This document shows positions 7,241 through 44,993 of a stretch of DNA of 64,000 nucleotides, piece after piece. Within the stretch, counting starts at the first letter, position 1, and every line of letters starts with the position of its first letter. The notes below the pieces were generated by a model. The model was given only the letters and a program-made list of their open reading frames with translations, did no database searches and was not told the origin of the DNA. Both the position numbers and the translations under genes were made by a program. The DNA is from Acidobacteriota bacterium (GTDB taxonomy: Bacteria; Acidobacteriota; UBA6911; RPQK01; JADFOI01): NCBI GenBank assembly GCA_963663035.1, contig OY760074.1:3360001-3424000 (forward strand), read 5' to 3'.

Positions 7241-7272
7241 GCAGTTTTGCACCCACCTCAGGCGCCGTTGCG

Positions 7273-10808: not shown

Positions 10809-10838
10809 GAGACGCCGGGCTGATTTAAGAAGCGAAAC

Positions 10839-11051: not shown

Positions 11052-11223
11052 ATTCAATAAATTGTTGAATTATTCAAAAAATTGAACCGTCGGAAAGCAA
11101 CAGCTGCTGAAAACAAAGCAGTTAGGTCATTGGCACAGATCTTGCTTTCTGTGCCAAACGACGTTAGAAAAAGTTAAGAAACTATAGATTTAACTTGAAC
11201 TATGGTCTCATTTAGTTTCTAAT
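11052..11223 (+). promoter_or_regulatory. Promoter module of TBDR3 (dyad sites, sigma54 box, sigma70-like promoter)
   Basis: ATTCAA-N7-TTGAAT 11052-11070, TTCAAAAAATTGAA 11073-11086, TGGCACAGATCTTGCT 11131-11146, TTGAAC-N17-TCTAAT 11195-11223. Confidence 0.8.
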
Positions 11224-11321
11224 AGGGCGCGAAAAGGCACAATAATCTTTGACTTCATTCATTTTATAAGTTTTGTGTATCAAGTTTCAGAACATTTCAA
11301 TCTTTAACTCGAGGAGTATCC

Positions 11322-25303: not shown

Positions 25304-26494
25304 GTGGGATGGAATTATCTGATATATAATACGCTCCCGAAAGTGGAAGAAGCCGCCAAGTTCCTTACAACCATACCGGCCACGATTATGAGAGGTGGGA
25401 CGAGCAAAGGTGTCTTCATCAAGCGCTCCGATTTCCTGGAATGGGACGATGCGGTCAGAAGAGACCAGATCATCCTGGCCATCATGGGGACTCCGGATCC
25501 CATGCAAATCGATGGCCTGGGAGGCACTCACTCCAGTACCAGCAAGCTGGTTGTGGTTGGCCCTGCTTCACAGAAAGATCTGGATCTGGAGTACACCTTC
25601 GTTCAGGTGGGGATCGATGCCCCGATTCTGGACTACAAGGGGAATTGCGGAAACCTCACTTCTGCCGTGGCTCCATTCGGACTTTTCGAAGAGCTGATGG
25701 CAGGTGTCGAACCTGTCACCAAGGTTGTGCTTTGGAATACCAATACCCAAAAGCGCATCATTGCCGAAGTCCCCTATCGACAATCGGTGGTGGAGCAGGG
25801 GGACTTCCAGATTGACGGGGTGCCACGTCCGGGAGCACCCGTCGTCATCCACTTCCTGGAACCGGCGGGTACCTCAACGGGCAAGTTATTCCCGACCGGG
25901 AGGTCAAGAGACGTTGTTCACACCTCCCGGGGGGAATTCGAGGTTTCGATTCTGGACGTGACCAATCCGGTGGTTTTTCTTCGAGCCAGTGCTCTGGGTC
26001 TGGAGGGGATTGAGCTTCCCTCCAGCCTGAACGGTGATTCTTCCCTCCTGGAGGGCCTTGAGGAGATCCGCCGCAAGGCGGCTGTCCTGGCCGGCGTACA
26101 TGGAGATGAGGAAGAAGCTGGACGGAGCAACGTGCCGTCCATCGCATTCGTCGGGCCTCCCCAGGATTATCAAACGGCGGCAGGGCGTACCGTCGATGCC
26201 AGTGATGTGGATCTGGTCGCGCGGATCGTCTCCATGCGTCGTGTCCACCACGCTTACCAGGGGACGGGGGCCATGTGCACGGCGGCGGCCGCTCGCCTGG
26301 CAGGAACCATCCCCTGCCAGGCGGCCGGCGGGCAACGCCAGAAGAAGGAAGTTGTCATAGGACACCCGAAAGGCATGATTCGTACAAAAGTAGAGGTTGA
26401 AAGGACTGAATCGGGAGATGAGAATGTGACCAGGATTTCGGTTACAAGAACGGCACGACGTCTCATGAGCGGGAAGGTTTATGCCTACTGCTAA
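25304..26494 (+). CDS. PrpF family isomerase (methylaconitate / methylitaconate isomerase or oxalomesaconate tautomerase-like); start uncertain
   Basis: MRGGTSKG, QIDGLGG..SSTSK, GNCGNL, HHAY..TGAMC, GHPKG, RTARRLM. Confidence 0.9.
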   Translation: MGWNYLIYNTLPKVEEAAKFLTTIPATIMRGGTSKGVFIKRSDFLEWDDAVRRDQIILAIMGTPDPMQIDGLGGTHSSTSKLVVVGPASQKDLDLEYTFVQVGIDAPILDYKGNCGNLTSAVAPFGLFEELMAGVEPVTKVVLWNTNTQKRIIAEVPYRQSVVEQGDFQIDGVPRPGAPVVIHFLEPAGTSTGKLFPTGRSRDVVHTSRGEFEVSILDVTNPVVFLRASALGLEGIELPSSLNGDSSLLEGLEEIRRKAAVLAGVHGDEEEAGRSNVPSIAFVGPPQDYQTAAGRTVDASDVDLVARIVSMRRVHHAYQGTGAMCTAAAARLAGTIPCQAAGGQRQKKEVVIGHPKGMIRTKVEVERTESGDENVTRISVTRTARRLMSGKVYAYC

Positions 26495-26525
26495 CACTAA
26501 CTGATGCAAGACATGTGAGGTGGGA

Positions 26526-26954
26526 ATGAAAGAAGAAGACATACGCCAATACGTAGTGACTGAGGATGAGGCTCAACGTTACAGTCCACCGGCCCATACG
26601 GATACGACCAATTTGCTGTACCTTCCCAGGGGAGCATGCGGGTCAAAGCAGTTCGAGGTCGTGCTGGGCATACCGCGCAAGGGCGGCGGAGGTGAGCCTC
26701 ACTTCCACGACCAGGCCGAGCAGATCGTTTTTGTGCTGGCGGGGCACGGCGAGACGGAAATTGAAGGGGCCCGTTATCCAATCGGCCCTCGCACACTCAT
26801 TTTCCACCCTCCCGGACAGGTCCATCGAGAACTTGCCGTCAGCGAAGATTTCGAGGTGCTGGTTGTTTATTCCCCGGCCATTGGTGTTCAGGACGGTCGA
26901 TCCTTCCGCATCCGACAGGACGGAGAATCCGGCCAAAATCGGAAGAACGGGTAG
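26526..26954 (+). CDS. Cupin domain protein
   Basis: PHFHDQAEQ and PPGQVH cupin metal motifs. Confidence 0.85.
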   Translation: MKEEDIRQYVVTEDEAQRYSPPAHTDTTNLLYLPRGACGSKQFEVVLGIPRKGGGGEPHFHDQAEQIVFVLAGHGETEIEGARYPIGPRTLIFHPPGQVHRELAVSEDFEVLVVYSPAIGVQDGRSFRIRQDGESGQNRKNG

Positions 26955-26958
26955 GGTC

Positions 26959-27420
26959 ATGCGGCTGGAAAAAGAGGCCACAATCCGTGCGGCACCCTCG
27001 GATGTGTGGGCCAGACTCTGGGATGTCAAGAGACTGATTCACTATATTCCCTCGGTGGAGGAGGTGAAGTCGGTGGAAGAGGGGAAGCGCTACTCGGTTC
27101 GTGTCAGCGACCGAGTGGGGCCGATCCAGATCCACTTCGATCTGGATGTGGTGGTGGATGGACTCGATCAGGATAGGTTCCTGCGAGTCAAGGTTTCCGG
27201 GAGAGCGAAAGGATTGGCAAGCAGCTTGCGGCAGGTGCTCGAGATCCGGCTGGAAGAGGCACCCCCTGACGGCACCCGTCTGGCGCTCAGCACCGAGATC
27301 TCCATCCTGGGAAAGCTGGGTTCGCTGGGTGACGGACTGATACGCAACAAGGCAACGGAGGTGTTTGCCAACTTTGTGGGAAACCTCAAAAAAGATCTCG
27401 AGTCGGATGAAATAGAGTGA
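26959..27420 (+). CDS. CoxG/SRPBCC family protein
   Basis: VWARLWD...IP, RVGPI, GKLGSLG..LI..KA pattern. The true start is ATG 26959, inside the listed 26566 ORF. Confidence 0.85.
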   Translation: MRLEKEATIRAAPSDVWARLWDVKRLIHYIPSVEEVKSVEEGKRYSVRVSDRVGPIQIHFDLDVVVDGLDQDRFLRVKVSGRAKGLASSLRQVLEIRLEEAPPDGTRLALSTEISILGKLGSLGDGLIRNKATEVFANFVGNLKKDLESDEIE

Positions 27421-28277
27421 GCGAATTTACTTGGCAGGAACCTGAGAGTCTGGAGGAGGTTCTGGCAATCCTGGCCCGAGGGCAGGCTGACACACGTCTG
27501 GTGGCCGGCGGGACAGCTCTGGGGCTCATGATTCAACAGGACCTGCTATCCCCTGGCCCCCTTGTCAGTTTGAGGAAGCTCCGGCATGAGTTTGGGGGAG
27601 TGGTCCGGCAGGAGGATGGCACCATTCACATCGGGGCCCTGGCAACCTTGCGTGAGCTCGAGCGCTCTGAGCCTTTGAACAGGTGGGCGCCCGTTCTCAT
27701 CACCGCACTTGGTCACATAGCCAATCCTCGCATTCGCAATATGGCCACCATTGGAGGTCATCTTGCTTATGCCGAACCTCATCTGGACTTACCCCCGGTG
27801 CTTCTGGCCATGGGAGCCAGCGTAAGAGTCAGGTCGCTGGAGGGAGAACGATGGATAGCCCTCTCCGAACTCCTTCAAGGTTATTATTCTACGACTCTGG
27901 AACCCGGCGAACTGCTGCTGGAGGTAGCATTCCCCCAGCAGACCAGTGTCTCACAGGGATCCTATGTCCGATACACGGCTTCCTCCAGCGATGACTGGCC
28001 CATGCTCGGATTGGCCTCGTTTGTGGAGAGCGATGGTGGCGCTGTAAAGGATATCCGGCTGGTGGTCAGTGGCATTTGCCCGGCTCCGACCCGACTGTCC
28101 GCTGTGGAGGAACTGCTTTGTTCGGAGAAACTGTCGCTTTCCTTGATCGATGAGGCGGCGCGAATGGCAGCGGGGCAATTCGAGGTTTTTGATGATATTC
28201 GGGGCAGTGCGTGGTACAAAAAGGAAATACTCCAGGTTCTGATCCGACGCGTCCTGAAGCGTCTGACAAGTCTGTGA
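27417..28277 (+). CDS. Xanthine dehydrogenase family FAD-binding (medium) subunit
   Basis: LVAGGT, IRNMATIGG, DDIRGSAWYK. Confidence 0.92.
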   Translation: MSEFTWQEPESLEEVLAILARGQADTRLVAGGTALGLMIQQDLLSPGPLVSLRKLRHEFGGVVRQEDGTIHIGALATLRELERSEPLNRWAPVLITALGHIANPRIRNMATIGGHLAYAEPHLDLPPVLLAMGASVRVRSLEGERWIALSELLQGYYSTTLEPGELLLEVAFPQQTSVSQGSYVRYTASSSDDWPMLGLASFVESDGGAVKDIRLVVSGICPAPTRLSAVEELLCSEKLSLSLIDEAARMAAGQFEVFDDIRGSAWYKKEILQVLIRRVLKRLTSL

Positions 28278-28309
28278 AGAGGACCGACGCCCCACCAGAA
28301 TAAAGGAAC

Positions 28310-30676
28310 ATGGACAAGTCAGAGAAGCAGGACAACAGCGGGAGGAAAGGGCGACCGGTCATCGGAACTTCGCCTCCCAGAATGGAAGCGGCAGCGAAGG
28401 TGTCGGGCAAGGCCCAATACACTGACGACCTGCCCTTTACTCACCTGCTTTACGGAGCCCTGGTGCGGAGCACCATTCCCCACGGCCGGCTGCGTCGCAT
28501 CGACAGTTCAGCAGTCGAGCAACTGCCGGGCATCGTTCGGGTCATTACCGGGGAGGACCTTCTCCCTCACCTGGCCGACCCCTACTATGGACCGGCCTTT
28601 CGAGACCGGCCCGTCCTCACCGCAGACAGGATCAGGCATGTGGGGGAGCCGCTGGCGGTGGTGGTGGCGGAAAGCTCCAGAATGGCCCGCCAGGGGGCCA
28701 GACAGGTCCAGGTAGACTACCAGGAGCTGCCCGCGGTCTTCGATGTAATGGAGGCGATCCGGCCCGATGCGCCCATCATCCATGACCGGATTCGACCCTC
28801 GGGCAGCTTCGCCGATCTCAAAAACCTCCTCCCACGTGAGCAAAGCAACATAGCTCTTCACTACAAGCTGCGTCATGGAAACATCGAAGAGGGTTTTGCC
28901 AGTGCGGATCGGATTTTCGAAGACGTCTTCAGCACTGCCCCCGTTGCGGCTATTCCCCTGGAACTTCTGGTCAGCGTCGCCAGTACCGAAGCCAGCGGCA
29001 AGGTGAACATCTGGAGCGCGACTCAATGCCCCCTCTTTGTGCGGAGCGAAGTCGCCCATGTCCTGGGCGTGCCGGAGGACCAGGTCCGGGTCCATGTCCC
29101 CAATCTGGGAGGAGGATTCGGCAACAAGATCTACGTGAAGCTGGAAATCCTGGCAGCGGTCCTGGCCGGCCTGCTGAGCCAGCCCGTGAAGTTGTCCCTG
29201 GAGCTGGATGAGCACGTCCACTTTGTGACCTCGCAGGCGGCCCCGGTCCTTTCTCTCCGTACTGGAGTCTCAAAGGAAGGCAGGATTCTAGCCCGAGAGT
29301 GCACGATTTTCTGGGACTGTGGTGCCTATGCCGAAATAGGACCTCGAATCGCACAGAAGTCAGCCTGCGTGGCGGCCGGCCCCTATGACATTCCCAACGT
29401 GCACATTGATTCGTCCCTTGTGTACACCAACAACATACCCGGAGAGGCCGTTCGTGGCTTTGGGGTCCCGGACGCAGTCTGGCCTGGTGAGGTCCAGATG
29501 GACATCATTGCCAGAGCCATGGGCTGGGATCCTCTCCAGTTTCGAAAACAGAACCTGCTGGTTGAAGGGAAGGTTCACGCCACCGGTCAGACCCTTGATT
29601 CAACTCCTCTTGAGAAGGTGCTGGACAGTCTGAGTGGACGGATCGGCTGGAGTGGATCAGGCAGCAGGCAGAGCCAAGGCCGCCCGGGAAGACGGCGGGG
29701 AAAAGGCGTGGCCCTCGGCTTAAAGCCGGTCCTGACCCCAACCGAGTCTTGCGCCCTGATCAGCATGGCGGCTGACGCAAGTGTCAAGCTGTACACCAGT
29801 ACTGTTGAGATGGGACAGGGAGCTCATACCTGCCTGCGCCAAATGGTGGCGGAGGCACTGGCTCTTCCCCAGGAGAAGGTTTCCGTCGTGGGGCCGGACA
29901 CCGATGTGACGCCATTTGATCAGCTTTCTGTTGGAAGTCGTTCCACCTTTCACATGGGCAACGCCGTGCTTCGAGCGGCGGAGGAGATCCGAAAACAGCT
30001 GATTTCCCATGTGAGCAGGGAATGGGGAGTTCCCGGTGAGGCCCTTGATTTGAGGGAGGGAAGGGTGATTCACCGAGAAGAGGACTCACGGGCGATTCCC
30101 TATAGCGAAGTGATCAGACAAATCGACCCCATGCCGGAGGGGAGTCTGATGGGGCGAGGATCTTATATCCCGGAATACACGAGTCCCGATCCAGAGACCG
30201 GTCAATCCGAGCGGGTGGCGGTTTTCTGGTTTGGCGGGGGAAGTGCGGTCGAGATCGAGGTCGATCCGGAAACGGGCAAGGTGAAAATCCTGAAGCTTGT
30301 CACCGTCGGTGAAGTGGGCAAGGCCATCAATCCGGTCAGTGTCCGCACTCAGCTGAGCGGTGCCGCCATCATGCGGCTCGGACACAGCTTGTTTGAGGCC
30401 TGTCGGTTCGATGGCGGACAGATGGTCAACAACACACTTTCCGACTACAAGGTTCCCACATTCCTAGATGTTCCGCAGGTCATGGAGACCGAGTATATTG
30501 AGTTGAAACATCCCGAGGGGCCCTTCGGGGCAAAGGGTGTCGGTGAAACGGGGACCTTTGCGCTTTCACCGGCCATTGCCAATGCCCTCTACGACGCTGT
30601 CGGTGTTTGGGTCAAGGATCTACCCCTGACCCCGGAGAAGGTACTCCGTGCCATTCGAGATTTGGAGGCCAAATGA
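28310..30676 (+). CDS. Xanthine dehydrogenase family molybdopterin-binding (large) subunit
   Basis: KVSGKAQYTDD, GGGFGNK, AVRGFG, EMGQG, GSRSTF, AKGVGE. Not a CO dehydrogenase motif. Confidence 0.93.
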   Translation: MDKSEKQDNSGRKGRPVIGTSPPRMEAAAKVSGKAQYTDDLPFTHLLYGALVRSTIPHGRLRRIDSSAVEQLPGIVRVITGEDLLPHLADPYYGPAFRDRPVLTADRIRHVGEPLAVVVAESSRMARQGARQVQVDYQELPAVFDVMEAIRPDAPIIHDRIRPSGSFADLKNLLPREQSNIALHYKLRHGNIEEGFASADRIFEDVFSTAPVAAIPLELLVSVASTEASGKVNIWSATQCPLFVRSEVAHVLGVPEDQVRVHVPNLGGGFGNKIYVKLEILAAVLAGLLSQPVKLSLELDEHVHFVTSQAAPVLSLRTGVSKEGRILARECTIFWDCGAYAEIGPRIAQKSACVAAGPYDIPNVHIDSSLVYTNNIPGEAVRGFGVPDAVWPGEVQMDIIARAMGWDPLQFRKQNLLVEGKVHATGQTLDSTPLEKVLDSLSGRIGWSGSGSRQSQGRPGRRRGKGVALGLKPVLTPTESCALISMAADASVKLYTSTVEMGQGAHTCLRQMVAEALALPQEKVSVVGPDTDVTPFDQLSVGSRSTFHMGNAVLRAAEEIRKQLISHVSREWGVPGEALDLREGRVIHREEDSRAIPYSEVIRQIDPMPEGSLMGRGSYIPEYTSPDPETGQSERVAVFWFGGGSAVEIEVDPETGKVKILKLVTVGEVGKAINPVSVRTQLSGAAIMRLGHSLFEACRFDGGQMVNNTLSDYKVPTFLDVPQVMETEYIELKHPEGPFGAKGVGETGTFALSPAIANALYDAVGVWVKDLPLTPEKVLRAIRDLEAK

Positions 30677-32331
30677 AAAGGACTTACGAACTTATGAACC
30701 CGGTTGAGTTGAGGAGCGGCCGTTTCCAGGGGTTGGCCCCCGGCCTAGACACCCTGAGCGGGAAGACGGTGGGGATCCTGAGCAACCAGAAGATTAACGC
30801 TGACACGGTGCTGGACCGACTGGCCGCTGAACTGGGCAAACGCTATGGGCTGGGCAAGGTGCTCAAGCGCGCCAAGAGAATTCAGTCCCAGGAAGCTCCC
30901 GATCAGACCCTCAATGAGCTGGCCGAGCAGGCCGACTTCGTGATCAGCGGAGTCGGTGACTGAGGATCCTGCTCGTCATGGTGTACCCATGACTCAATTG
31001 AGCTGGAACAGCGGGGCATTCCCACCATCTCCGTCTTCACCTCCGCCTTCGCCTCCCTGGCAAAGACCGCGGCCAGCACCTGGGGGATCGAAAAGTTCCA
31101 CCTGGTGACGGTTCCTCATCCTCTGGAGTCCATGGGGGAGGAGGAGATTGGCAGGGCCGTGGAGGCGGTGGTCGAGGCGGCGGGCAGCGGTCTCATCGGG
31201 GACCGTGGCGCCTCCAATGACCCGCTCCCCCAGCCTGGTGAGCAGAAGAAAGAGCTGGAGAGAATCCTGCACTTCCAGGGGTCAGAAGAGGAGTTGTATG
31301 AGTGGTTTCTGACCCAGGGCTGGACGGACGGTCTGCCCGTCATTCCGCCGACGCCGGAAAGAGTGGAAGCCATGTTGAGCGGAATAGCACGCAGGCCGGA
31401 AGAAGTGCTCCGTCTCATCCCTCCGCGTTGGGCCGAATTGACCATGGAAAAGCTGGCGGCCAACGCCGTGATGGCCGGCTGCACTCCGGAACATATGCCT
31501 GTCCTGATTGCCGCCATTGAGGGGCTTTGCTCGCCCCCCTTCAACCTCTTTGGCATCCAGGCCACCACCAATCCAGCAGGTCCCATGCTGGTCGTCAACG
31601 GACCTGTGGCGGATCGAGTGGGAATACAAAAGGGGGTGGGAGCGCTGGGGTCTGTCTGGAGGGCCAACGTGACCATTGGAAGAGCCATACGGCTGGCTTT
31701 GATAAACGTGGGAGGTGGTCTGCCCGGCGACACGGATCGGGCCACCCACGGCATGCCGGGCAAGCTTTCTTTCTGCTTTGCTGAAAACGAAGAAGAGAGT
31801 CCCTGGGAACCTCTCCACGTGGAGAAGGGACTGTCTCGGCAGGCAAGCGCGGTGACGGTGTTCTCTGCTTCCGGTACTCTCAACCTCCTGGACCAGGGAA
31901 GCCTGACGGGGGAGGGGTTACTGAAAACCTTTGCCAGCGCCCTGCAGGTCACCGGAACCAACAACATTCTTTTGGGTGGTGAGCCTGTGCTCATCATCTG
32001 TCCCGAGCATGCCAGTACCTTGAGTGAAGGTGGATTCGACAAGACAAAAATCAGGGAGTGGTTGTTTGACAACGCCCGTGTGCCCTTGAAGGAGTTCTCG
32101 CAGGACAATGTCAGGAACGTTTTGAGGAAACGGCGACCTCACCTTTTTGAACAAGGTGATCCCCAGACGGTTTCACTCGTCGATCGAATGGAAGACCTGG
32201 TCATCGTCGTCGTGGGCGGACCCGGGAAACATTCGGTTTTTGTGCCGACCTTTGGAGCAAGCCACAGTGTGACCACCCCCATCGAGGAGGCTGCTCCAGA
32301 ATCAAAGGAGGCAGACAAAGGCAAGGAATAG
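30673..32331 (+). CDS. Probable selenoprotein: UGSC-family thioredoxin-like N-terminal domain (Sec97) fused to a GWTDGLP-type domain, 552 aa
   Basis: ATG 30673 overlaps the upstream stop. In-frame TGA at 30961-30963 in ISGVGD-U-GSCSSWCTHD. The frame stays open into the 31105..32331 ORF, and a SECIS-like hairpin starts 11 nt after the UGA. Confidence 0.85.
30961..30993 (+). other. Bacterial SECIS-like element
   Basis: UGA, 11-nt spacer, 7-bp stem GTCATGG/CCATGAC (30975-30981/30987-30993), loop UGUAC containing GU. Confidence 0.75.
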
Positions 32332-32342
32332 GTGTTGCTCGC

Positions 32343-32852
32343 ATGCCCTTGGAGATAACTTTCAAACTCAACGGCAAACCGGTTTCGACAACGGTGACCC
32401 CCAGTCAGAGCGCGGCCGACGTTCTCCGCGAGCAGTTTCAACTCAGCAGCGTCCGTCAGTGCTGCAAACAGGGGATCTGCGGAGTGTGCACAATCTGGCT
32501 TGGCAAAAAAGCGGTAAGCTCCTGCTTGTTGCTCTCACCTCTTCTGGACGGTCAGGAGGTATTCACCGTGGAGGGTATTTCCCAAGATGTTGCCGGACTC
32601 GATCCCTTGCAGCAGGCCTTTGTGGCCGAGGACGCACTGCAGTGCGGTTTCTGTACTCCAGGAATGGTCATGATGGCGGGGGCACTGCTGAGAGACCATC
32701 CGGAAGCGGACGAAAGTCTGATTCGGGAATACATGGTGGGGAATATTTGCCGCTGCGGCTGCTACCCTGAGATTATTCGCGCCATACAGCGCGCCTTGGG
32801 GGATGATCTGAAAGGGAAGAAACAGCACGAATTTTCGGAGGGGGTGACATGA
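32343..32852 (+). CDS. Xanthine dehydrogenase family 2Fe-2S (small) subunit
   Basis: CxxGxCGxC, SSC, QCGFCTPG, GNICRCG. Confidence 0.93.
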   Translation: MPLEITFKLNGKPVSTTVTPSQSAADVLREQFQLSSVRQCCKQGICGVCTIWLGKKAVSSCLLLSPLLDGQEVFTVEGISQDVAGLDPLQQAFVAEDALQCGFCTPGMVMMAGALLRDHPEADESLIREYMVGNICRCGCYPEIIRAIQRALGDDLKGKKQHEFSEGVT

Positions 32853-33340
32853 AGACAGTTCCGGAGCTTGTGGAAGTGACCAGAAAAGTGATCGCCCAGC
32901 GGGCCGGTGCCCAGGGGCAGGGCCAGGGAACACTGCGCGCAGATGTTCAACATCGCCAACAGAAGACTCTTGAGGCAACCGTCAAGGCCGGGGGTGGAGA
33001 ATTCACGTTCCTCATTGATGAACCCCGGGCCCGGGGGGGTCTGGGGGAGGGGGCTAACCCTCTTGGGTATTTTCTGGCAGGTGCCGGTGGCTGTCTTCTG
33101 ATGCAGTATGTGAGCCTGGCCATTGCCCAGGATCTGCCCATCCAGACCTTGTCGATGATCGTGCGGGCGCACATCCTCCGGCAAGTTCCCTGTCACTTTC
33201 AGGACATCGTGTATGACATATTCATAGTCGGTTCCGTCTCCCAGGAGCAGGTCGAGCAGCTGGCCGAGGAGGCCATCCCGGTCGAAACCATCATCCACCT
33301 CAACGGCAAAATCGTCCTGAATCGAAAGAAAGCTCCCTAG
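32849..33340 (+). CDS. OsmC/Ohr-like protein, second Cys missing
   Basis: DEP..GG.G.G.NP..YFLAG.GGC. The usual C-terminal Cys segment is absent (EQLAEEA-IPVET). Confidence 0.75.
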   Translation: MKTVPELVEVTRKVIAQRAGAQGQGQGTLRADVQHRQQKTLEATVKAGGGEFTFLIDEPRARGGLGEGANPLGYFLAGAGGCLLMQYVSLAIAQDLPIQTLSMIVRAHILRQVPCHFQDIVYDIFIVGSVSQEQVEQLAEEAIPVETIIHLNGKIVLNRKKAP

Positions 33341-33387
33341 AGCTGACCCCGGAAATGTTCGTGCTAAGATATTCTTGACAAAACCAA

Positions 33388-34272
33388 GTGGTGCATCCGA
33401 GAAAAGTCTTCAAACAATTGCTCCAGAGTGAAAGACTCCTGGTCGTGCCGGGGTGTTTCGATGGTCTTTCCGCACGCCTTGTGGAGGAAGCCGGATTCGA
33501 AGCCGCTTACTTGAGCGGTGGTGCAGTGGCCCGCAGCCTGGCGCTGCCCGACATCGGTCTGGTGACCCTGTCCGAGAATGTCCAGAGAGCCGCCCAGGTC
33601 GCAGCGGCTGTCAAAATACCCATTGTTGGAGATGCGGATACCGGCTATGGCAACGCTGTCAATTTGGTGAGGGCGGTACAGGAGTTTGAACGGACCGGTG
33701 TGGCCGCAATTCACATCGAAGACCAGATCACACCCAAGCGCTGTGGGCATCTGGAGGGAAAAGAGGTGATTTCGCTTGCCGAGATGGAGAAGAAGCTGGA
33801 GGCGGCTCTGGTGAGCCGGACGGACCCCGACTTCGCGATCATCGCACGCACGGATGCGCGCGCCGTACATGGGTTGGAAGAGGCCATTCGAAGGGGACGA
33901 GCCTTCGCGCGGATGGGAGTTGACGCGGTCTTTGTCGAGGCGCCTCAGTCCGAGGCCGAGCTGGTGACGATCGCTACTTCCCTGTCTGATGTGCCGCTCA
34001 TGGTCAACATGTTCAAGGGAGGAAAGACTCCCCTCCTACCGGTTTCGAAATTGGAGCAGATGGGATATCGACTTGCCATCTTTCCCTCCGAGACCCAAAG
34101 AGCGGCCATTCATGCCATGCGCAAGGCCCTGCAGCATCTCAGGGAGCAGGGAGCTACCGAGGCCATGGATCATGAGCTCACGACCTTCCAGGAGAGAGAC
34201 AGGATCGTTGGCCTGGATGACTGGCAGGAACTGGAGCAGCGGTTTCTGGTGCCGAAGCCAAAAAAGGCCTGA
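33388..34272 (+). CDS. Isocitrate lyase / PEP mutase family enzyme (methylisocitrate or dimethylmalate lyase-like)
   Basis: AGFEAAYLSG, DADTGYG, IEDQ..PKRCGH, IIARTDA, FVEA, GGKTP. Confidence 0.92.
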   Translation: MVHPRKVFKQLLQSERLLVVPGCFDGLSARLVEEAGFEAAYLSGGAVARSLALPDIGLVTLSENVQRAAQVAAAVKIPIVGDADTGYGNAVNLVRAVQEFERTGVAAIHIEDQITPKRCGHLEGKEVISLAEMEKKLEAALVSRTDPDFAIIARTDARAVHGLEEAIRRGRAFARMGVDAVFVEAPQSEAELVTIATSLSDVPLMVNMFKGGKTPLLPVSKLEQMGYRLAIFPSETQRAAIHAMRKALQHLREQGATEAMDHELTTFQERDRIVGLDDWQELEQRFLVPKPKKA

Positions 34273-34305
34273 GCCGGGCTAGCCGAGGCTATGTATAGGT
34301 TTTCG

Positions 34306-34347
34306 TTAAAAGAGCTTCGACCAATTTTCCTTGAGTTTCTCTCTCTT
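34306..34347 (-). pseudogene. Isolated 3' remnant of a ubiD-family gene (KREKLKENWSKLF-stop)
   Basis: About 40 nt with 4 mismatches to the 3' end of the ubiD pseudogene at 35766-35805. Confidence 0.7.
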
Positions 34348-34542
34348 AATCGGCTACTTTGCGAAATCGCTGACTTGCTGACCTAAGGATATTTTTTTTG
34401 CCTTTGACCCCCTCAGCGCGTAGCATTGACCTCAGCTACATTGCACAGTGAGGGGCAGGTCCGTGCTCGGTACGACCATTGAGCCGCATCCAATTTTTTG
34501 TATGCGATTTGAAACCAGGCTGCAGTGAAGAAAGGGGGGTCC

Positions 34543-35748
34543 ATGACGACCACGCGAAGAGAACTTCTCCTGACCTCGGGAGCCCTGGCAGGAGCGTCGA
34601 TGCTTCCAGTGGGGGCAGCACCCGCGGCGCAGTCAACCACTAATCTCCAGAGTGCCCAGCAATTGGCCGATGACGTAGGCAATGCCCTGAATGTCTGGGA
34701 TTTCAAGGGCATTGCGGAAAAACGCCTACCCTACTCATCCTGGTCTCAAATCAGAGGGGCTGCAGCCGATGAGCTCACCTTCAGATGGAACCGGGAGTCC
34801 TTTGACCGGATTCGCCTGCGGCCCGATGTCCTGGTGGATCACACAGGTTTGGACACCCGTACGCGCCTGTTTGGACAGGAAATGCCGTTTCCTATCTTGA
34901 TATGCCCAACCGGCGCAAGCCGGAACTGTCATCCTGACGCGGAAGTCGCCACGGCCCGCGGTGCCGGTATGGCTGGAGCTACCATGGCGATCAGCAGCAA
35001 TGCCAGCAAGACGGTGGAGGAGATCGCCGCGGCAGCCACCAGCCCCCTCTGGTTTCAGGTCTACATGCTGAGGGATCGTTCCTTTCTCCGCGATCAGGTC
35101 CAGCGGGTGGAGGACGCAGGCTGCAAGGCCCTCTGTTTGGTCCTGGACAGCCCTATCCAGGGTCCTCGCAACCGGGCCCGGCGGGCCTCTCAGACCGGGA
35201 CTCCCTCCAGCGGCGGCTCCGGTCGTCCCAACCTCCAGGGCCAGAGGTTAGCCGAGCAGTTGGAACACCCGAGATTGCACCGGTACAAGGATCCCTCCGC
35301 CACTTGGAAGGACCTCAATTGGCTCTGCTCCATCGCCCGTGTTCCCGTTCTGATGAAGGGTGTGCTCGATCACCAAAACGCGGAACAGGGAATACAAGAA
35401 GGAGTGGGCGGCATTATTGTCTCCAATCATGGGGGTCGCAACCTGGACACCGCTCCGGCCACCGTCGATGCGTTGCCTGAAATCGTTGACCGGGTGGACG
35501 GTCGAGTACCGGTTCTGATCGATGGTGGCATCCGCCGCGGCACTGACGTCTTGAAGGCCCTGGCTCTGGGTGCCAACGCTGTCATGATTGGACGAGCCTA
35601 CCTTTACGGGTTAGCTGCCAACGGTCCTGAAGGGGTGAGCCGCGTACTTGAGATTCTGCAGACGGAGTTGGAGATGGCCATGGTTCTTACCGGCCGTCCC
35701 ACCATTGCCAGTATCGACCGAAGTGTGCTCTGGTCTCCCCCGGCATAA
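34543..35748 (+). CDS. FMN-dependent alpha-hydroxy-acid oxidase/dehydrogenase with twin-arginine leader
   Basis: TRRELL leader, RLRP.VL, LWFQVY, KG, VSNHGGRNLD, DGGIRRGTDVLKALALGA. Confidence 0.92.
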   Translation: MTTTRRELLLTSGALAGASMLPVGAAPAAQSTTNLQSAQQLADDVGNALNVWDFKGIAEKRLPYSSWSQIRGAAADELTFRWNRESFDRIRLRPDVLVDHTGLDTRTRLFGQEMPFPILICPTGASRNCHPDAEVATARGAGMAGATMAISSNASKTVEEIAAAATSPLWFQVYMLRDRSFLRDQVQRVEDAGCKALCLVLDSPIQGPRNRARRASQTGTPSSGGSGRPNLQGQRLAEQLEHPRLHRYKDPSATWKDLNWLCSIARVPVLMKGVLDHQNAEQGIQEGVGGIIVSNHGGRNLDTAPATVDALPEIVDRVDGRVPVLIDGGIRRGTDVLKALALGANAVMIGRAYLYGLAANGPEGVSRVLEILQTELEMAMVLTGRPTIASIDRSVLWSPPA

Positions 35749-35765: not shown

Positions 35766-37206
35766 CTAAAACAGCTTCGACCACTTTTCCTTGAGTTTCT
35801 TTCTCAGCTCAGGGGTAACCTTTGATGGTACTGAAAACTCTTTGATCCAGTAGAAAGGCTTGCAGGCATCGATAATGGCCAGCGAGTGCTCGAATTGCCC
35901 ACGCTTTCTTTGCTCAGGAGGCAGCAGGACGTCGGGACCTGGGCCAGCCCACCAGCCTCTAATAATATCGATGGACTCCACTGGATCGCACCTAGTTCCC
36001 AAAGCCCAAAGAACGTCTGAGATATTGGTTGGGTCTACGTCTTCGTCTACCACGATGACATATCTCAGCATGTAAGCAACGGCATTGCAGCTGGCGGCCG
36101 CCAGTGCCGTCTGCTTGGCATGCCCTCCATACATCTGCTTGATAGAGACCACTGCCATGTGGCGAAGTCCGGCCTCACCAATAAGCCAGGTGCCCTGAAC
36201 ACCGGGTACCTGCTTATCCAGTTCATCCCATAGGACTGCTGACATATGGATGTCTCGGCCCAGTGTCCACAGAGACGGGTGAACTGCGGGCGGATTTCCC
36301 AAGATTATGGGATCGTTACGGTATAACATGGACTTGACCTTGAAGACAGGCATATCTTCCCCTGGGTCAATATAATAACCAGCCCAGTCACCAAACAAAG
36401 GTACCGGCCTTGGCGGTTCTACCTCTGGTCTTAGAATTTCCCCTTCCAGTACGATCTCAGCGGCGGCTGGCAGGGGTAGATCGGTGGTTTCACCTCTGGT
36501 CACCTCCACGGGGGCGCCCCTATACCATCCCGCATAGTCGTATTCAGATGTCCCCCAGGGGACGTTCAGGCCAGCTGCCATTTGAAGTCCTGGTTCCTGG
36601 CCGCAGGAGACGGCCACTGGACAGTTCTGCCCCCTGGAAAAATTTGTTCATGATGATCCGGTTGTGCCTGCCAGGCGACATAAAGACCGCGGATGTTGTC
36701 TTGTCAAAGATTGGAACCATCTGAGCGGCAATGTTCACCCAACCCTCGTCCGGGTCTCTCGTTAGCACGAGGTCACCGGTACCAATATATCGGCCTGTGT
36801 CACCTTCGCGCCATCTCGGTGCCGGCAACTTGAACAGGTCTACTTCATCACCAACCAGTATATTTTCCTTGAGCGGGCCGCTCTCAACCTCCACAGGAGG
36901 CACCAGCTTGACTCCCTGCTTGAGCTTACTTCGCATCGTCTTGACCTGGTCTGCCTTGCTCGCCTCCAAGGGCAAGTCCAAACCGAGAGCAGTACGTCTG
37001 GACGAGGCGAAAGGGTTGCTGGCCACACGATATCCCGGTGGGTAATCCTTGATGTTGTCAAACATCAGCAATGGAGAGTCAGGAGTTTCCGCCTTCAAAT
37101 CCGAAAGGGCTCCCAGTTCCACATCCCAGTGGGCTCCGTCAATCACTTCCACCTCTCCCAATTCCTCAGCTTTTTCTATGAATTCCCTGAGATCATTAAA
37201 GGGCAT
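35766..37206 (-). pseudogene. UbiD family decarboxylase, frameshifted and degenerate
   Basis: The N-half starts MPFNDLREF at 37206. A frameshift falls in the homopolymers at ~36630-36642. The EGPFGE motif has decayed to VPLFGD and NxGxYR to NIAAQM. Confidence 0.8.
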
Positions 37207-37399
37207 CTTGTCCTCCTCTGGGTAGTTGCACGTTACTCTGTTTTGAGTGCCACGGTGGACCACAAGACTGAGTTAATCAGAGCAGAGGGTAGATGGCTAC
37301 GCAACTTTTTTTCTCTCTTTTTCGGTTTGAGACAGGATTTCACACACCTTTGCCGTGGGCAGCGCAGCCCCGGGGTGGGGGAATTCGCTTCTTGGATCT

Positions 37400-37876: not shown

Positions 37877-40800
37877 ATGAGACTCTATTATCTAGCCTTG
37901 GTTGGTATTCTTTCTCTAAACAGTGCCCAACTGCTCTTTGCCCAGACCACTGGGACGATTTCTGGGGCAGTCACAGATGAAACTGCTGCCGCGTTGCCGG
38001 GAGTGGAAATGACCGCAACCCATGTGGACACGGGTATCACCCGTACCGTGGTCTCCGATGACGTGGGCCGATACCGGATAACCAATCTCAACGTGGGCAG
38101 CTACGAAATAGTGGCCAGCCTTCCCGGTTTTCAGAGCGGGGTTCGAAGTGGACTCTCCCTGACCATGGGCCGCGAGGCAGTAGTCGATTTTACCCTCAGA
38201 GTTGGAGAAATCACGGAGCGGGTCCAGGTCATCGGAGAAGCTTCGTTGGTGGAGACTACCTCCAGCAGCCTGGGCAGCCTGGTGGATCGGAAGACGATCC
38301 TGGATCTGCCTCTCAATGGCCGCGATCTGACCACCCTGATTTCGCTGCAGCCCGGGGCGACGCGGTCCACCACCGGCAGCACCGGCGGCAGTGCAGGATT
38401 CAGCCGGGACGTCTCCATCTCGGGAGCCCGGCCCTCCCACAGCGCCTTTTTGCTGGATGGGACCGAGGTCAAGTCAATAGACGGAGGACTTCCGGCGGGA
38501 GTCTCTGGCAATTTTCTGGGTGGAGAAGCCGTTCAGGAATTTAAGGTGGAGAGAAATGCCTACAGTGCTGAGTATGGGGGCAGTGGCGGAGGAGCGATCA
38601 ACGTTCTGAGCAAGGCGGGGAGCAATATTTACCACGGCTCGCTCTACTACTTTCACCGCAACGACAACCTGGATGCCGCGGAATTTCGGGCTGGCACTGT
38701 TGTGGATTCGTCTGGCGCTTTCGCCGGCAAGATTAAGCCGGAATTCAAGCGCCACCAGTACGGTTTTAGCGCCGGTGGGCCGATTATCACGAATCGGACC
38801 TTCTTCTTTGGCAACTATGAAGGACTGCGGGAGGGCCGGGGATTTACCTCCACGCTGCGCACCCTCACCGCGGCTGCGCGAAACGGCGACTTGCCGAGCG
38901 GACAGGTGCAGGTTCTCCCTGGAATGGTCCCTTACCTGGCTTTGTGGCCCTTGCCCGGACCTGGCGCCATAGACCAGGGAAACGGAACAACCCGGGAAGC
39001 AGTGGGCCGCGTTCAACCGACGCAGGAAGACTTCTACCAGGTGCGGGTGGATCACAACTTCTCGGATGCGGATTCTGTCTTTGCGCGGGTGACTCGCCAA
39101 GATTCCGAGCGAATCCCCCCCGGGACCCTGAGATGGGACAAGCGCCAGTGGACCTACAACACCTTCATTACCCTCGAGGAGAAGAAAATTATCTCGCCCA
39201 CTCTGCTCAATACCCTTCGTTTCAGCTTCAACCGCCGTGGACTGGCAGAAGAGGACATTGAAACCGACCCGGTTGATCCCAGCCTGCTGTTTGTACCGGC
39301 GGACAAGTGGCCACTTCGGGTCCCTCAGACTCTGGGAATTGTGAGTGTCGATGACCTTTCAACCTTAGGATCGGATCGCGGCCTTTTCGATCGCTTGGTA
39401 AACTACTTTCAGTTGGGCGAGGATCTTGTCTACCTCCGCGGAGCGCATTCTCTGAAGGCCGGATTTAGCTTTCGGCGCATTCAACTGAATGGGGACAGCA
39501 ACTCCCGTAAGGCTGGAGACTTCAGTTTTGGCCCCATTGAGAACTTGCTGCGCGGCGAGCCGGAGACCTGGCGAGGCGAGTTCCTGCCCGAGGGCATCGG
39601 TATCCGCGGATTTCGTTGGTCCCTCTGGGGCTGGTACCTTCAGGACGACTGGAAGGTCCATCCACAGCTGACTTTGAACCTGGGCTTCCGGCATGAGTTT
39701 TACACCGTGCCCACGGAGGTCAACGGGAGAATTGCCAACCTGAAAAATCCCTTTACGGACACTGTTCAGGCCATCGCCGAAAACACAGACTCTTCTATCG
39801 TCGGCACAACCCTAACGCAATGGTTTGAGAATCCTTCTTTGAAAAGTTTCATGCCCCGCATCGGTCTGGCCTGGGATCCTACCGGCGACGGCAAGATGGC
39901 CATCCGGGCAGGTGGTGGAATCTTCTATAATCACATCCAGCCGCAGTTGTTTCGGCAGACGGCCTTCCGCGGAGCGCCCTTTACCCTGCAAACGCGACTG
40001 ACCGGTGATGCGCCGGGGGACATTCCCTTTATAGGCATTTACGACTTTATCGTAAACCAGGGAGAAGGGGAGTCGGAGATATACGCTTTTCCCTTCGACT
40101 GGGGAAGAAATCCACACATGCTCCAGTGGAATCTGAACATCCAGCGGGAGATTCTGCCCCAAACTGCGCTCACGGTGGGCTATGCCGGTTCCCGGGGTTT
40201 AAACCTGATGGATATACAGAACCTGAATGTGGCCGAGGCTGAGAACGTCAATGGCAGGTATGTATTCGCAGCGGACGCTGAGCGACGCAATACCTTCTAT
40301 GATCTGCAGCTGAGAAGCCTGGAATCGTCGATCAGTTCCTGGTATCACAGCTTTCAGGCGGGACTGCAGCGTCGCTTCCAGGCGGGATGGCAGCTGCAGC
40401 TTTCCTACACGCACTCCAGAACCCAGGATCAGAGCTCCCAGGTCAGTAGCGCCTTCCGCAATGACTCTGGCGGAGTTAACTATTATCCGGATCCGATGAT
40501 GCGCTGGAGCCTGGCTGCTTTTCACCTCGCCGATAACTTTTCAGGCAGCTGGGTGTGGCTGCTGCCTGTCGGTCCCGGCCAGCAATTTGGCGCCGATTGG
40601 ACCGGCGTGGCAGGCAAGATCCTGGGCGGCTGGCAGCTGTCTGGAATTCTGACTCTGGCTTCGGGACCTCCGGCTACCGTTGGCACTTCAACGCCGAGGG
40701 CTCTGACCAGACTCAAGTTCGGGAGCCAGGGACCCGATCTGGCACCCGGGGGGGACCTGAGTCCGGTGACCGGGGATCCAGACCAATATTTCGACGTCTC

Positions 40801-41092
40801 GAACTTTGTTTTTGCGCCGTCTCGAACCATCGGCAACGTGGGGCGAAACACGCTGAAAGCGCCGGGCGTGGCTAATCTGGATTTCTCTCTGACCAAGAAC
40901 ACGGAGGTTTCCGAGCAGGCCACGTTGCAGTTTCGGGCCGAGTTCTTTAACCTGCTCAACCGGCCGAACTTTAGCTTGCCTGCCACAAGGGTTTTTGGTA
41001 GCACTGGAAAACCCTCTAGTAGCGCCGGATTCATCAGCGGCACGACCACCACGTCGCGCCAGATTCAGTTTGGTCTGCGCTTGGAGTTTTAG
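37877..41092 (+). CDS. TonB-dependent receptor (Oar-like), TBDR4
   Basis: Signal peptide, LPLNGRD, AVQEFKV, YLQDDWKV; ends QFGLRLEF. Confidence 0.93.
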   Translation: MRLYYLALVGILSLNSAQLLFAQTTGTISGAVTDETAAALPGVEMTATHVDTGITRTVVSDDVGRYRITNLNVGSYEIVASLPGFQSGVRSGLSLTMGREAVVDFTLRVGEITERVQVIGEASLVETTSSSLGSLVDRKTILDLPLNGRDLTTLISLQPGATRSTTGSTGGSAGFSRDVSISGARPSHSAFLLDGTEVKSIDGGLPAGVSGNFLGGEAVQEFKVERNAYSAEYGGSGGGAINVLSKAGSNIYHGSLYYFHRNDNLDAAEFRAGTVVDSSGAFAGKIKPEFKRHQYGFSAGGPIITNRTFFFGNYEGLREGRGFTSTLRTLTAAARNGDLPSGQVQVLPGMVPYLALWPLPGPGAIDQGNGTTREAVGRVQPTQEDFYQVRVDHNFSDADSVFARVTRQDSERIPPGTLRWDKRQWTYNTFITLEEKKIISPTLLNTLRFSFNRRGLAEEDIETDPVDPSLLFVPADKWPLRVPQTLGIVSVDDLSTLGSDRGLFDRLVNYFQLGEDLVYLRGAHSLKAGFSFRRIQLNGDSNSRKAGDFSFGPIENLLRGEPETWRGEFLPEGIGIRGFRWSLWGWYLQDDWKVHPQLTLNLGFRHEFYTVPTEVNGRIANLKNPFTDTVQAIAENTDSSIVGTTLTQWFENPSLKSFMPRIGLAWDPTGDGKMAIRAGGGIFYNHIQPQLFRQTAFRGAPFTLQTRLTGDAPGDIPFIGIYDFIVNQGEGESEIYAFPFDWGRNPHMLQWNLNIQREILPQTALTVGYAGSRGLNLMDIQNLNVAEAENVNGRYVFAADAERRNTFYDLQLRSLESSISSWYHSFQAGLQRRFQAGWQLQLSYTHSRTQDQSSQVSSAFRNDSGGVNYYPDPMMRWSLAAFHLADNFSGSWVWLLPVGPGQQFGADWTGVAGKILGGWQLSGILTLASGPPATVGTSTPRALTRLKFGSQGPDLAPGGDLSPVTGDPDQYFDVSNFVFAPSRTIGNVGRNTLKAPGVANLDFSLTKNTEVSEQATLQFRAEFFNLLNRPNFSLPATRVFGSTGKPSSSAGFISGTTTTSRQIQFGLRLEF

Positions 41093-43736: not shown

Positions 43737-44993
43737 ATGGAGGCCAAGAAAGGTGGCCGCAGACGATTCCTGAGTGGCGCGTTAGCCGGTTTGATGGTAG
43801 GAGGGACTCGGTCCGAGAGCGGCCAGGCACTCGGGGCCCAAACACCCGAAGTACCCTCCGGAGACCTCCTCGCCTATGGCGAGCGCTCACGTTTCGAGAC
43901 CTCCAAACGCACGAGCCAGGGCTCTTTTTCCTGGCTCTTCAACCGTAGGCCCGATTTGTTGACGCCGCTTCAGGACTCGTTGGGAATCATCACGCCGCCC
44001 TCCCTTCATTACGAGGTCTCTCACGGCAGCCAGCCCCCGGACATCGACCCCAGCCGGTATCGTCTCACGATCCAGGGCCTTGTGGACAGACCTCGGAGTT
44101 TCACGCTGGATGAGTTGAAGCGTCAGCCGTTCGTATCGCGGATTCGTTTCCTCGAGTGCGCCGGAAATACAACTTCCCACCTTCGGCAGGCGCAGAATGC
44201 CGAGACAGTGCAGCTTTCGCACGGATTCACCAGCTGCAGCGAATGGACCGGCGTGCCGCTCTCCCTGTTGCTCCAGAAGACTGGCGTGCAAGAAGGAGCA
44301 GGCTGGTTGGTTGCAGAAGGTGCAGAGGCGGGAAAGCATATCAGGAGTATTCCGTTGGAGAAGGCCAGAAAAGACGTGATCGTAGCCTACGGCCAAAATG
44401 GTGAACCGCTGCGACCCGAGAATGGGTACCCCTTGCGGCTGGTGGTCCCCGGCCTTGCAGGATTTTACAGCGTTAAGTGGTTGAGACGAATCAAGCTGTC
44501 GGATCAGCCCCACCTGGTCCATCAGGGACGCTTCAGGCACTCGCCGTCGCAGGACGATTCGGGTGGGTTCCGTTTCGAGATAGGACCGAAATCGGTCATC
44601 ACTTTCCCTTCCGGCGGGCAACGGTTGCCCAGCCGCGGATTTTTTATGATCGGCGGCCTGGCATGGTCCGGTGGGGGCGCCATCCGCACGGTCGAAGTAT
44701 CTTCCGACGGCGGCCGAAGCTGGAAGGAAGCGCAGCTTCAGGATCCGGTGCTTCCAATCGCCCATACCCGGTTTAGCTTTGCCTGGAATTGGCACGGAGA
44801 AGAGGCCATACTCCAGTCCCGCTGCACGGATGAACTGGGCCAGGTTCAACCGACGCTTGCTGAGTTTGCCCGATCCAAGGGCGTCACCCGGGAGCAATTG
44901 CTATCAGGCTCGATACGAGAGGTCGGTCACTTCAATGTCATTCAACCCTGGAAGGTGACCCGCGATGGGAGCGTTCACAATGCGCTGACGTGA
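43737..44993 (+). CDS. Sulfite oxidase family molybdoprotein (SoxC/SorA-like) with Tat signal
   Basis: GRRRFL leader, TPLQ..GIITP..LH, FLECAGN (Mo-ligating Cys), SCSEWTGV, NGEPLRPENGYPLRL, VKWLRRI, GLAWSG. Confidence 0.9.
   Translation: MEAKKGGRRRFLSGALAGLMVGGTRSESGQALGAQTPEVPSGDLLAYGERSRFETSKRTSQGSFSWLFNRRPDLLTPLQDSLGIITPPSLHYEVSHGSQPPDIDPSRYRLTIQGLVDRPRSFTLDELKRQPFVSRIRFLECAGNTTSHLRQAQNAETVQLSHGFTSCSEWTGVPLSLLLQKTGVQEGAGWLVAEGAEAGKHIRSIPLEKARKDVIVAYGQNGEPLRPENGYPLRLVVPGLAGFYSVKWLRRIKLSDQPHLVHQGRFRHSPSQDDSGGFRFEIGPKSVITFPSGGQRLPSRGFFMIGGLAWSGGGAIRTVEVSSDGGRSWKEAQLQDPVLPIAHTRFSFAWNWHGEEAILQSRCTDELGQVQPTLAEFARSKGVTREQLLSGSIREVGHFNVIQPWKVTRDGSVHNALT

Follow-up and report, generated by a model that had tools for sequence, protein, structure and literature searches.

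The 64-kb window analysed here (the whole stretch of 64,000 nucleotides (nt) from contig OY760074.1 of an Acidobacteriota bacterium, numbered from its first letter) contains a gene for a predicted selenoprotein of the UGSC family, encoded on the forward strand at 30673..32331 and located between the genes for the large and small subunits of a xanthine-dehydrogenase-family molybdenum (Mo) hydroxylase. The gene was recognised as a single open frame holding one TGA (30961..30963, +), with further support from Pfam, NCBIfam and AlphaFold2; translated with TGA as selenocysteine (Sec, U) it gives 552 residues, comprising a UGSC domain and a C-terminal partner domain (hereafter C-domain), and U97, in the motif GVGD-U-GSC-SSWC, is the sole recoded codon, its place in the U-G-S-C motif being assigned by comparison of homologous sites. 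Under translation table 11 the same frame is called as two open reading frames (ORFs; 30607-30963 and 31105-32331). The first-pass annotation of this DNA had joined the two into a hidden selenoprotein interrupted by nothing but the TGA, and this reading of the frame was upheld. ORF callers currently split or truncate the gene, and annotation should join it into one Sec-containing protein.

The start codon (ATG 30673) follows a Shine-Dalgarno-like GGAGG, read from the sequence 4 nt ahead of it (30664..30668, +), and shares the tetranucleotide ATGA (30673-30676) with the TGA stop of the Mo large-subunit gene; the N-termini of full-length homologues align at this ATG. At the other end, an 11-nt gap separates the TAG stop from the start of the 2Fe-2S small-subunit gene (32343..32852, +; Pfam Fer2_2 and Fer2), the stop of which is in turn overlapped by the start of an OsmC-like gene. 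The start/stop coupling to the Mo subunit and the order of the 2Fe-2S and OsmC-like genes, both described previously for this DNA, agreed with the junctions and the Pfam matches. GC content and GC content at third codon positions (GC3) of the inserted gene are those of the adjoining genes and give no obvious sign of a recent insertion. Public runs from four studies contain near-identical versions of the segment 29800-33400 (0.92 or more of the sampled words shared), and the junction between the Mo subunit and the selenoprotein occurs in more than one sample. Short metatranscriptome contigs from two libraries only (31220-31430, 32740-32896 and 33041-33255) hint weakly at transcription and do not prove it. 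A search of the window for other frames broken only by TGA returned five candidates, every one antisense to annotated genes.

Selenocysteine at codon 97 and its hairpin

The Pfam family PF24696 (UGSC) matched residues 7-171 with an E-value of 2.7e-48 (164.8 bits, cut-off 25) and NCBIfam NF041046 ('UGSC family (seleno)protein') scored 146.1 bits (cut-off 125), both matches spanning the TGA. Among 80 loci from species-representative genomes (the genome loci), 75 had a UGSC match, and at the aligned column the best match carried an in-frame stop in 71, Cys in 3 and was uncovered in 1; when all covering UGSC matches in these loci were counted, the codon at the homologous site was TGA in 86 and TGC in 4 of 90. 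All 13 relatives' loci had an in-frame stop at the site, and the 76 metagenome matches had a stop (71), Cys (3) or Thr (2). At position 97 of 17 full-length database homologues, Cys was found in 13 and His or Ser in 4. In contigs of two other studies the TGA was unchanged, with 2 and 3 differences elsewhere. The source genome encodes the complete Sec machinery, all above cut-off (selA 559 bits, selB 370 bits, selD 378 bits and tRNA-Sec 66 bits). The alternation of TGA and Cys at this codon and the presence of selA, selB, selC and selD had both been named as checks in the first-pass annotation, and both came out in favour of Sec. Of the cysteines noted there, the UxxC pair and a third Cys in SSWC, all are present in the sequence, and the pair stands; the third (C104) is not conserved, most homologues having SWS.

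A hairpin of the Sec insertion sequence (SECIS) type was located at 30975..30993 (+) by folding, alignment and covariation. Its stem, GUCAUGG/CCAUGAC, is 7 bp long, one less than the 8 bp of most homologues, and closes the loop UGUAC with its conserved G-U; exactly 11 nt lie between the UGA and the stem, as had been reported earlier for this DNA. In E. coli the upper stem-loop comprises nucleotides 15-31, 11 nt from the UGA, as given in the available part of PMC8659212; the spacing and geometry of the hairpin here are identical, and the likeness already drawn to the E. coli element therefore agrees with the published figure. Folding of the single sequence was no better than that of shuffled sequences (z -1.0; 30 of 200 shuffles equalled it), and an Rfam scan of 30800-31200 at E ≤ 10 gave only a chance match to Antizyme_FSE (14 bits) and no match to a bacterial SECIS family. 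The hairpin was further analysed in an alignment (A5) of 48 nt from the TGA in 87 Sec-form sites, where the 8-bp stem corresponds to columns 15-22/26-33 and the loop positions G23 and U24 are conserved in at least 90%. Paired cells made up 91.2%, against 82.8 +/- 0.6 in shuffles (reached by 0 of 500), and pairing fell to 19-48% when the 3' arm was slid as a control. Seven of the eight stem pairs were changed on both sides, and 36 compensated cells were counted against 7.1 +/- 2.5 in shuffles (reached by 0 of 500), where cells count sequences and not independent events. Several of the compensations touch synonymous positions (Ser UCA with His CAU, UCG with CAC), and another pairs a Trp-to-Cys change (UGG to UGC) with Val GUC to GUG. 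These comparisons strongly support the view that the product is a genuine selenocysteine protein, UGA 30961 probably being decoded as Sec via the downstream hairpin, and that it belongs to the UGSC family.

Two further observations concern selenoproteins outside the gene. The selD gene of the source genome (G000:C1:3111136-3112059, minus strand; locus L010) holds one in-frame TGA, the selenophosphate synthetase itself being a selenoprotein. Divergent UGSC paralogues, also with TGA, were seen at L034:16968, L070:12271, L079:3150 and L086:15128; they share the motif G-x-G-A/G-U-G-A/S-C, score about 47-54 bits to the UGSC domain of the window, and carry a different hairpin (GCCCGCA...UGCGGGC) at nearly the same distance downstream.

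The UGSC domain, the C-domain and their redox partners

The AlphaFold2 model of the full-length protein had a mean predicted local distance difference test (pLDDT) of 92.6 and a predicted template modelling score (pTM) of 0.91. The UGSC domain (residues 7-171; 30691..31185, +) was delimited by Pfam coordinates, by DSSP analysis of the model and by structural matches. Residues ~26-181 of the model form a three-layer alpha/beta structure matching unrelated Rossmann/flavodoxin-like proteins at Z 9-11 (225 chains at Z of at least 8), and the best 50 listed, at Z 8.8-11.1, were Rossmann/flavodoxin-like, with no thioredoxin among the matches listed; Foldseek matches of the domain had E-values of about 1e-4. 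The model thus suggests a Rossmann/flavodoxin-like fold for the UGSC domain. According to DSSP, U97 lies in the model between a strand (89-95) and a helix (98-113), and C100 is in the first turn of the helix; the end of a strand at the start of a helix is the usual site of a redox-active CxxC-type pair.

The C-domain (residues ~195-552; 31255..32331, +) matched no Pfam or NCBIfam family and was delimited by its conserved columns. Cys368 is invariant and Cys270 invariant or nearly so, as are many Gly, Pro, Asn, Arg, Asp, Lys and Glu positions. Modelled alone, the domain had a pLDDT of 91.2. In sequence searches of solved structures, neither the C-domain profile nor that of the whole protein found anything below E 0.1; the best Foldseek match of the C-domain was at E 3e-3 with TM 0.2, and the top match of a structural (VIA) search had Z 5.7 over 90 residues (3 chains reached Z 5 and none Z 8), so no fold was assigned. 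With a natural homologue (P0012) as query, the ESM Atlas gave members of its own family and nothing else, labelled automatically as 'thioredoxin family' and lacking Pfam matches.

The C-domain family is large: 7,458 of 8,000 scored candidates (90% clusters) matched, and a full HMMER scan of the 50% clusters gave 7,961 representatives at E ≤ 0.001, 2,489 of them at E ≤ 1e-30. Architectures were surveyed for 219 C-domain matches in 173 fetched loci. Separate genes with UGSC directly upstream, in another frame or past a stop, made up 95 matches, fusions in one frame as in the window gene 45, the reverse order (C-domain then UGSC) 34, and pairs with one intervening gene 21, while the C-domain was alone in view in 15 and at a contig edge in 9. 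Fusion, fission and reversal of order are together a classic sign of a functional unit, and the genomic evidence strongly supports UGSC and the C-domain as a conserved pair, apparently forming a two-module unit. Some genomes carry several paralogous copies, stand-alone C-domains included (hhalign probability 100). The unit was present in 12 of 61 genomes searched, including the source genome (G000), which has one copy only; 6 congeneric genomes lacked it, and no close orthologue at E ≤ 1e-90 was found among 400 other genomes sampled from the phylum. Identity to the selenoprotein was 54% at most in the metagenome scan and 78-79% for two database proteins (P0003 and P0004). In a few loci a DUF6282 gene lies between UGSC and the C-domain (L059:3013-3861, L062:1061-1918 and L070:5803-6678) or near the fused gene (L024:11535-12431), and in some lineages DUF6282 may belong to the unit as a third component.

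Further partners were sought in 61 longer relatives of the C-domain alone. A C-terminal pyridine-nucleotide-disulfide-oxidoreductase domain (Pyr_redox_2), thioredoxin-reductase-like, was found in 32, UGSC in 17, and an AhpC/Redoxin-type thioredoxin-like domain in 1; AMP-binding, Amidohydro_2 and alpha/beta-hydrolase domains occurred once each, fibronectin type III in 4, and no extra domain was found in 4. The best NCBIfam match of the reductase part was thioredoxin-disulfide reductase (210.8 bits in P0122, below the cut-off of 343). CADC and CAVC motifs are present in the reductase parts of P0122 and P0144, and CPTC in the thioredoxin-like part of P0152. A separate thioredoxin-reductase-like gene was found in 13 of the 173 loci and directly adjoins the unit in those inspected (L070, L141, L145 and L191). 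That the C-domain is alternately fused to thioredoxin-system modules is strongly supported by these protein sequences, and its alternation among three kinds of dithiol or selenothiol partner points to a catalytic part that would consume reducing equivalents, with UGSC as the probable relay.

Relation to the molybdenum hydroxylase and surrounding genes

The Mo large subunit (28310..30676, +; Pfam Ald_Xan_dh_C, MoCoBD_1 and MoCoBD_2) scored below every NCBIfam equivalog cut-off, and its closest solved chain was the alpha subunit of 4-hydroxybenzoyl-CoA reductase (1rm6_A, E 8e-88). The first-pass annotation had suggested that the Sec module serves this enzyme, and had advised a survey of UGSC neighbourhoods for xanthine dehydrogenase subunits. 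Neighbourhoods were probed with the window's own proteins, and large-subunit homologues no farther than 8 kb from the unit were counted. Such a homologue was found in 5 of the 80 genome loci (L047, L070, L082, L096 and L097), with a sixth, weak match (46 bits) near the unit in L078, and by coordinates in none of those genome loci was it contiguous and co-directional with the unit. None was found in the 13 relatives' loci (+/-10 kb) or in 80 metagenome loci, 24 of which were at least 8 kb long, and in none of the 173 fetched loci did the unit share an operon with a Mo enzyme. The Mo subunit homologues in 60 related genomes were at best 45% identical, and in 9 of 11 homologous Mo loci the 2Fe-2S gene stands directly before or after the large-subunit gene with nothing inserted. 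The insertion between the Mo subunit genes is real and is unique in the sample. From these comparisons it looks like a one-off and not a general partnership, and a dedicated service of the selenoprotein to the Mo enzyme is not supported: the survey revealed no conserved co-occurrence of the unit with xanthine dehydrogenase subunits, and its recurrent partners are instead the thioredoxin-reductase-like and thioredoxin-like modules.

Within 5 kb of the unit, the recurrent neighbours in the 80 genome loci were TctC-type binding proteins (23), enoyl-CoA hydratase (9), SDR (7), PrpD-like proteins (6), CoA-transferase (6), and DUF6282, acyl-CoA dehydrogenase and Amidohydro_2 (4 loci each); among immediate neighbours, TctC was found in 18 of 117. 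YqeB and YqeC (TIGR03309 and TIGR03172) gave no match in the single-contig source genome, which is 96.6% complete, and this speaks against a role in a Mo=Se centre via the known route. A complex prediction for the flavin adenine dinucleotide (FAD) and 2Fe-2S subunits with the C-domain, run without controls and without the UGSC domain, gave a score of 0.00 and weighs neither way.

The selenoprotein gene lies in a same-strand run (25304-35748, +) that leads from a PrpF-family isomerase-like gene (25304..26494, +; Pfam PrpF, E 2e-121) to a gene of the PEP-mutase/isocitrate-lyase family (ICL-like; 33388..34272, +; Pfam PEP_mutase, E 1e-48) and then to a flavin mononucleotide (FMN)-dependent dehydrogenase. 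The Mo enzyme block opens with a CoxG/SRPBCC-like gene (26566..27420, +; Pfam COXG, E 6e-11), followed by the FAD-binding medium subunit (27417..28277, +; Pfam FAD_binding_5 and CO_deh_flav_C) and the large subunit. The OsmC-like protein encoded behind the 2Fe-2S subunit (32849..33340, +; Pfam OsmC, E 7e-8) is a Cys form (Cys82 and Cys115) and scored 68.9 bits against NF041052 ('OsmC-related (seleno)protein'), below the cut-off of 95; the 2Fe-2S gene has on either side a gene from a family with known selenoproteins. Upstream of the run are two Amidohydro_3 genes; then come PrpD-like, EamA and UbiD-like genes, with Amidohydro_2 and Rieske genes on the other strand. The region looks like a catabolic island rich in Mo enzymes and amidohydrolases, for an organic or N-heterocyclic acid. 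We take the gene set to resemble the nicotinate fermentation genes of Eubacterium barkeri, with the PrpF-like protein presumably in the place of methylitaconate isomerase and the ICL-like protein in that of dimethylmalate lyase, an analogy that is suggestive only. PrpF is related to methylitaconate isomerase (Mii) (PMC4720413).

In a related genome (L213, G015:C5:2521-7815) a Mo large subunit 41% identical to that of the window adjoins ICL-like (45%) and PrpF-like (44%) genes, so the association of these three recurs without the selenoprotein. A UbiD-family gene (35766-37263, -) appears as two overlapping ORFs in different frames, 36544-37263 with the N-terminal domains and 35766-36617 with the remainder, which may reflect a frameshift or an assembly error. 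The window also contains a second Mo subunit of the xanthine dehydrogenase family, cut by the window start, four genes for TonB-receptor-like outer-membrane proteins with CarboxypepD_reg domains and a sulfite-oxidase-type Mo enzyme (54-1853, 3887-14669, 37877-41092 and 43737-44993, all +), and elsewhere more amidohydrolases and a lactate permease.

Proposed function and comparison with known systems

On balance, the gene probably encodes a genuine Sec protein that works as a two-module thiol/selenol-dependent enzyme, the link to the Mo hydroxylase being co-expression in one pathway and not a dedicated partnership. SelB and tRNA-Sec most probably decode UGA 30961 with the hairpin 11 nt downstream. 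The first module is the N-terminal UGSC domain, in which a helix begins at U97-x-x-C100, and the second is the C-domain of ~350 residues, which is the near-constant companion of UGSC. Substrate binding and catalysis would fall to the C-domain, making the protein a thiol/selenol-dependent enzyme and most likely a reductase, and UGSC would be its built-in redox relay, in the role that thioredoxin-like or thioredoxin-reductase-like modules would play elsewhere. U97 and C100 would cycle between the selenol/thiol and selenylsulfide states and reduce a site based on Cys270 and Cys368 in the C-domain, acting on a small carboxylate-type substrate, with reducing power presumably drawn from the thioredoxin system of the cell. 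The single copy of the unit stands between the genes for the large and small subunits of the Mo hydroxylase, inside the catabolic run, and the link to that enzyme would most likely be co-expression in one degradation pathway for an organic or heterocyclic acid.

Several points weigh against this proposal. The four TGC (Cys-form) sites retain 6-7 of the 8 hairpin pairs, when all 8 are formed in 56 of the 87 Sec forms, which means that conserved codons explain part of the pairing, the Cys forms being too few to decide. The fetched loci were obtained with a two-domain query, which biases the architecture proportions towards pairs. No thioredoxin-reductase-like gene was found in the 64-kb window, and the sole above-cut-off thioredoxin reductase in the genome lies about 1.5 Mb away. 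A gene set between two subunit genes, with an ATGA overlap, is linked more tightly than pathway neighbours usually are, and its position would fit a physical or electron-transfer link in this organism. Finally, reviews up to 2026 list the UGSC family as uncharacterised, and the C-domain has no recognisable fold or family, the term 'reductase' being drawn from its fusion partners.

Other explanations account for parts of these data. The C-domain could be a non-redox enzyme, such as a two-cysteine isomerase, racemase or hydro-lyase, for which UGSC or thioredoxin modules merely keep the cysteines reduced; the two invariant cysteines, the many invariant polar residues and the frequent isomerase- or dehydratase-type catabolic neighbours are in line with this, as are weak, long structural alignments (Z 3.4-4.2) to class I fumarate hydratase, L-serine dehydratase and PrpD-type proteins. 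Those alignments are, however, all below the noise level stated for the tool, and a complete NAD(P)H-type thioredoxin-reductase fusion in 32 of the 61 longer relatives suggests stoichiometric use of electrons and not repair, which leaves this explanation rather unlikely, if worth keeping in mind. In an alternative with electron coupling, the Mo hydroxylase would replace the thioredoxin-reductase-like flavoprotein and have the selenoprotein as its physiological acceptor, with electrons passing from the substrate to Mo, through two 2Fe-2S clusters and FAD to the U97-x-x-C100 selenylsulfide, and on to a later reductive step. The placement of the gene between the two subunit genes (ATGA overlap and 11-nt gap), its GC and GC3, which are like those of its neighbours, and its status as the sole copy in the genome would fit such a route, as would a window devoid of the thioredoxin-reductase-like gene that other loci have fused or adjacent. 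The same-operon arrangement is nevertheless seen in 0 of the 173 fetched loci, the genome has a housekeeping thioredoxin reductase, and to our knowledge flavin-to-selenylsulfide transfer from a xanthine-dehydrogenase-type FAD subunit has no precedent, and we regard coupling of this kind as unlikely. In its fullest form, the Mo hydroxylase and the UGSC selenoenzyme would make up one redox machine with an internal electron loop independent of NAD(P); we consider this decidedly improbable, and if true it would suggest which class of substrates to consider for the UGSC family.

The first-pass annotation had also raised the maintenance of the Mo=S/Se ligand, by which the Sec module would install or repair the terminal Mo=S or Mo=Se ligand. 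Only the position of the gene and the general chemistry of selenols and persulfides speak for it; against it, the great majority of loci with the unit have no Mo hydroxylase genes nearby, several paralogous copies adjoin transporters and enzymes of acyl-CoA or organic acids, homologous Mo operons lack the insert, and the genome gave no YqeB or YqeC match, which makes this role very unlikely. A reading of the TGA as a genuine stop, or as an error of sequencing, with two genes or a pseudogene as the outcome, would agree with the split made by table-11 ORF calling and with the non-significant single-sequence fold; given a Pfam domain that runs across the TGA, the same codon at 86 of 90 homologous sites and in the contigs of other studies, the covariation of the hairpin and the Sec machinery of the genome, it is extremely unlikely.

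Favouring, then, a two-module Sec enzyme co-expressed with the Mo hydroxylase, we see the operon embedding as a curiosity that could still give an experimental handle on UGSC function. The genome is a clean test case, with a single contig, one copy of the unit, the full Sec machinery and a defined catabolic operon, and if the link to the Mo enzyme is functional, the substrate of the hydroxylase would narrow the search for that of the selenoenzyme.

Accessory factors are known for enzymes of the xanthine dehydrogenase family, among them the XdhC-type chaperones. YqeB and YqeC are described as markers of selenium-dependent Mo hydroxylases in the part of PMC2276186 available to us. The selenoprotein resembles XdhC, YqeB and YqeC in being encoded within a Mo hydroxylase operon and differs from them in showing no homology and in lacking co-distribution with such enzymes. 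Enzymes with fused or adjacent thioredoxin-system modules include AhpF/AhpC and the thioredoxin-fused methionine sulfoxide reductases. Shared with the AhpF/AhpC type are a catalytic domain with essential cysteines and a fusion, varying between lineages, to a CxxC carrier or a low-molecular-weight thioredoxin-reductase domain; there is no sequence relation and no clear fold relation, and the carrier here would be a UxxC domain other than thioredoxin. The glycine/sarcosine/betaine and D-proline reductases, with their selenoprotein B (GrdB/PrdB), are driven by thioredoxin. GrdB/PrdB are listed as UxxC proteins in Table 2 of PMC2398784, as far as its available text goes. They offer an analogy of working, a UxxC selenoprotein with a second, substrate-binding component fed by thioredoxin. 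Membership of that family (PF07355) was rejected, as 28 UGSC-fusion proteins gave no GRDB match even at E ≤ 5; GRDB had no match in the source genome either, in a search that gave none in the control genomes.

Zhang and Gladyshev gave the UGSC family its name, and PMC1976440 calls it a 'selenoprotein of unknown function'. PMC2398784 counts 255 Sec forms in the GOS set and places UGSC among the most abundant predicted selenoprotein families of those ocean and freshwater metagenomes, and a 'UGSC/Unknown_1' fusion to a conserved domain with a conserved Cys was published there in 2008. Reviews of 2022 and 2026, in their available portions, list the family without a function, no functional study was found in the partly accessible literature searched on UGSC terms, and the PF24696 and NF041046 matches above cut-off are in accord with the earlier description of this gene as a UGSC fusion from a family of that status. 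The earlier statement that no such system had been described needs dividing: a fusion of UGSC to a conserved domain was already in print, whereas a selenoprotein inside a xanthine dehydrogenase operon was not described in the literature searched, part of which was seen as excerpts. UGSC/Unknown_1 is alike in joining UGSC to a conserved domain with conserved cysteine(s), which may be the C-domain; by the excerpted text of PMC2398784, Unknown_1 is limited to a few aquatic organisms, whereas the C-domain has 7,961 representatives here, and the thioredoxin-like fold guessed there for UGSC contrasts with the Rossmann/flavodoxin-like matches of our model. With the UGSC family as known, the protein shares the U-G-S-C motif, the alternation of TGA and Cys and a SECIS directly downstream, and it differs in its fused partner domain of 360 residues and its position in a molybdenum-hydroxylase operon. 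The selenoprotein adds to a known, still uncharacterised family, and what sets it apart is its embedding in a molybdoenzyme operon.

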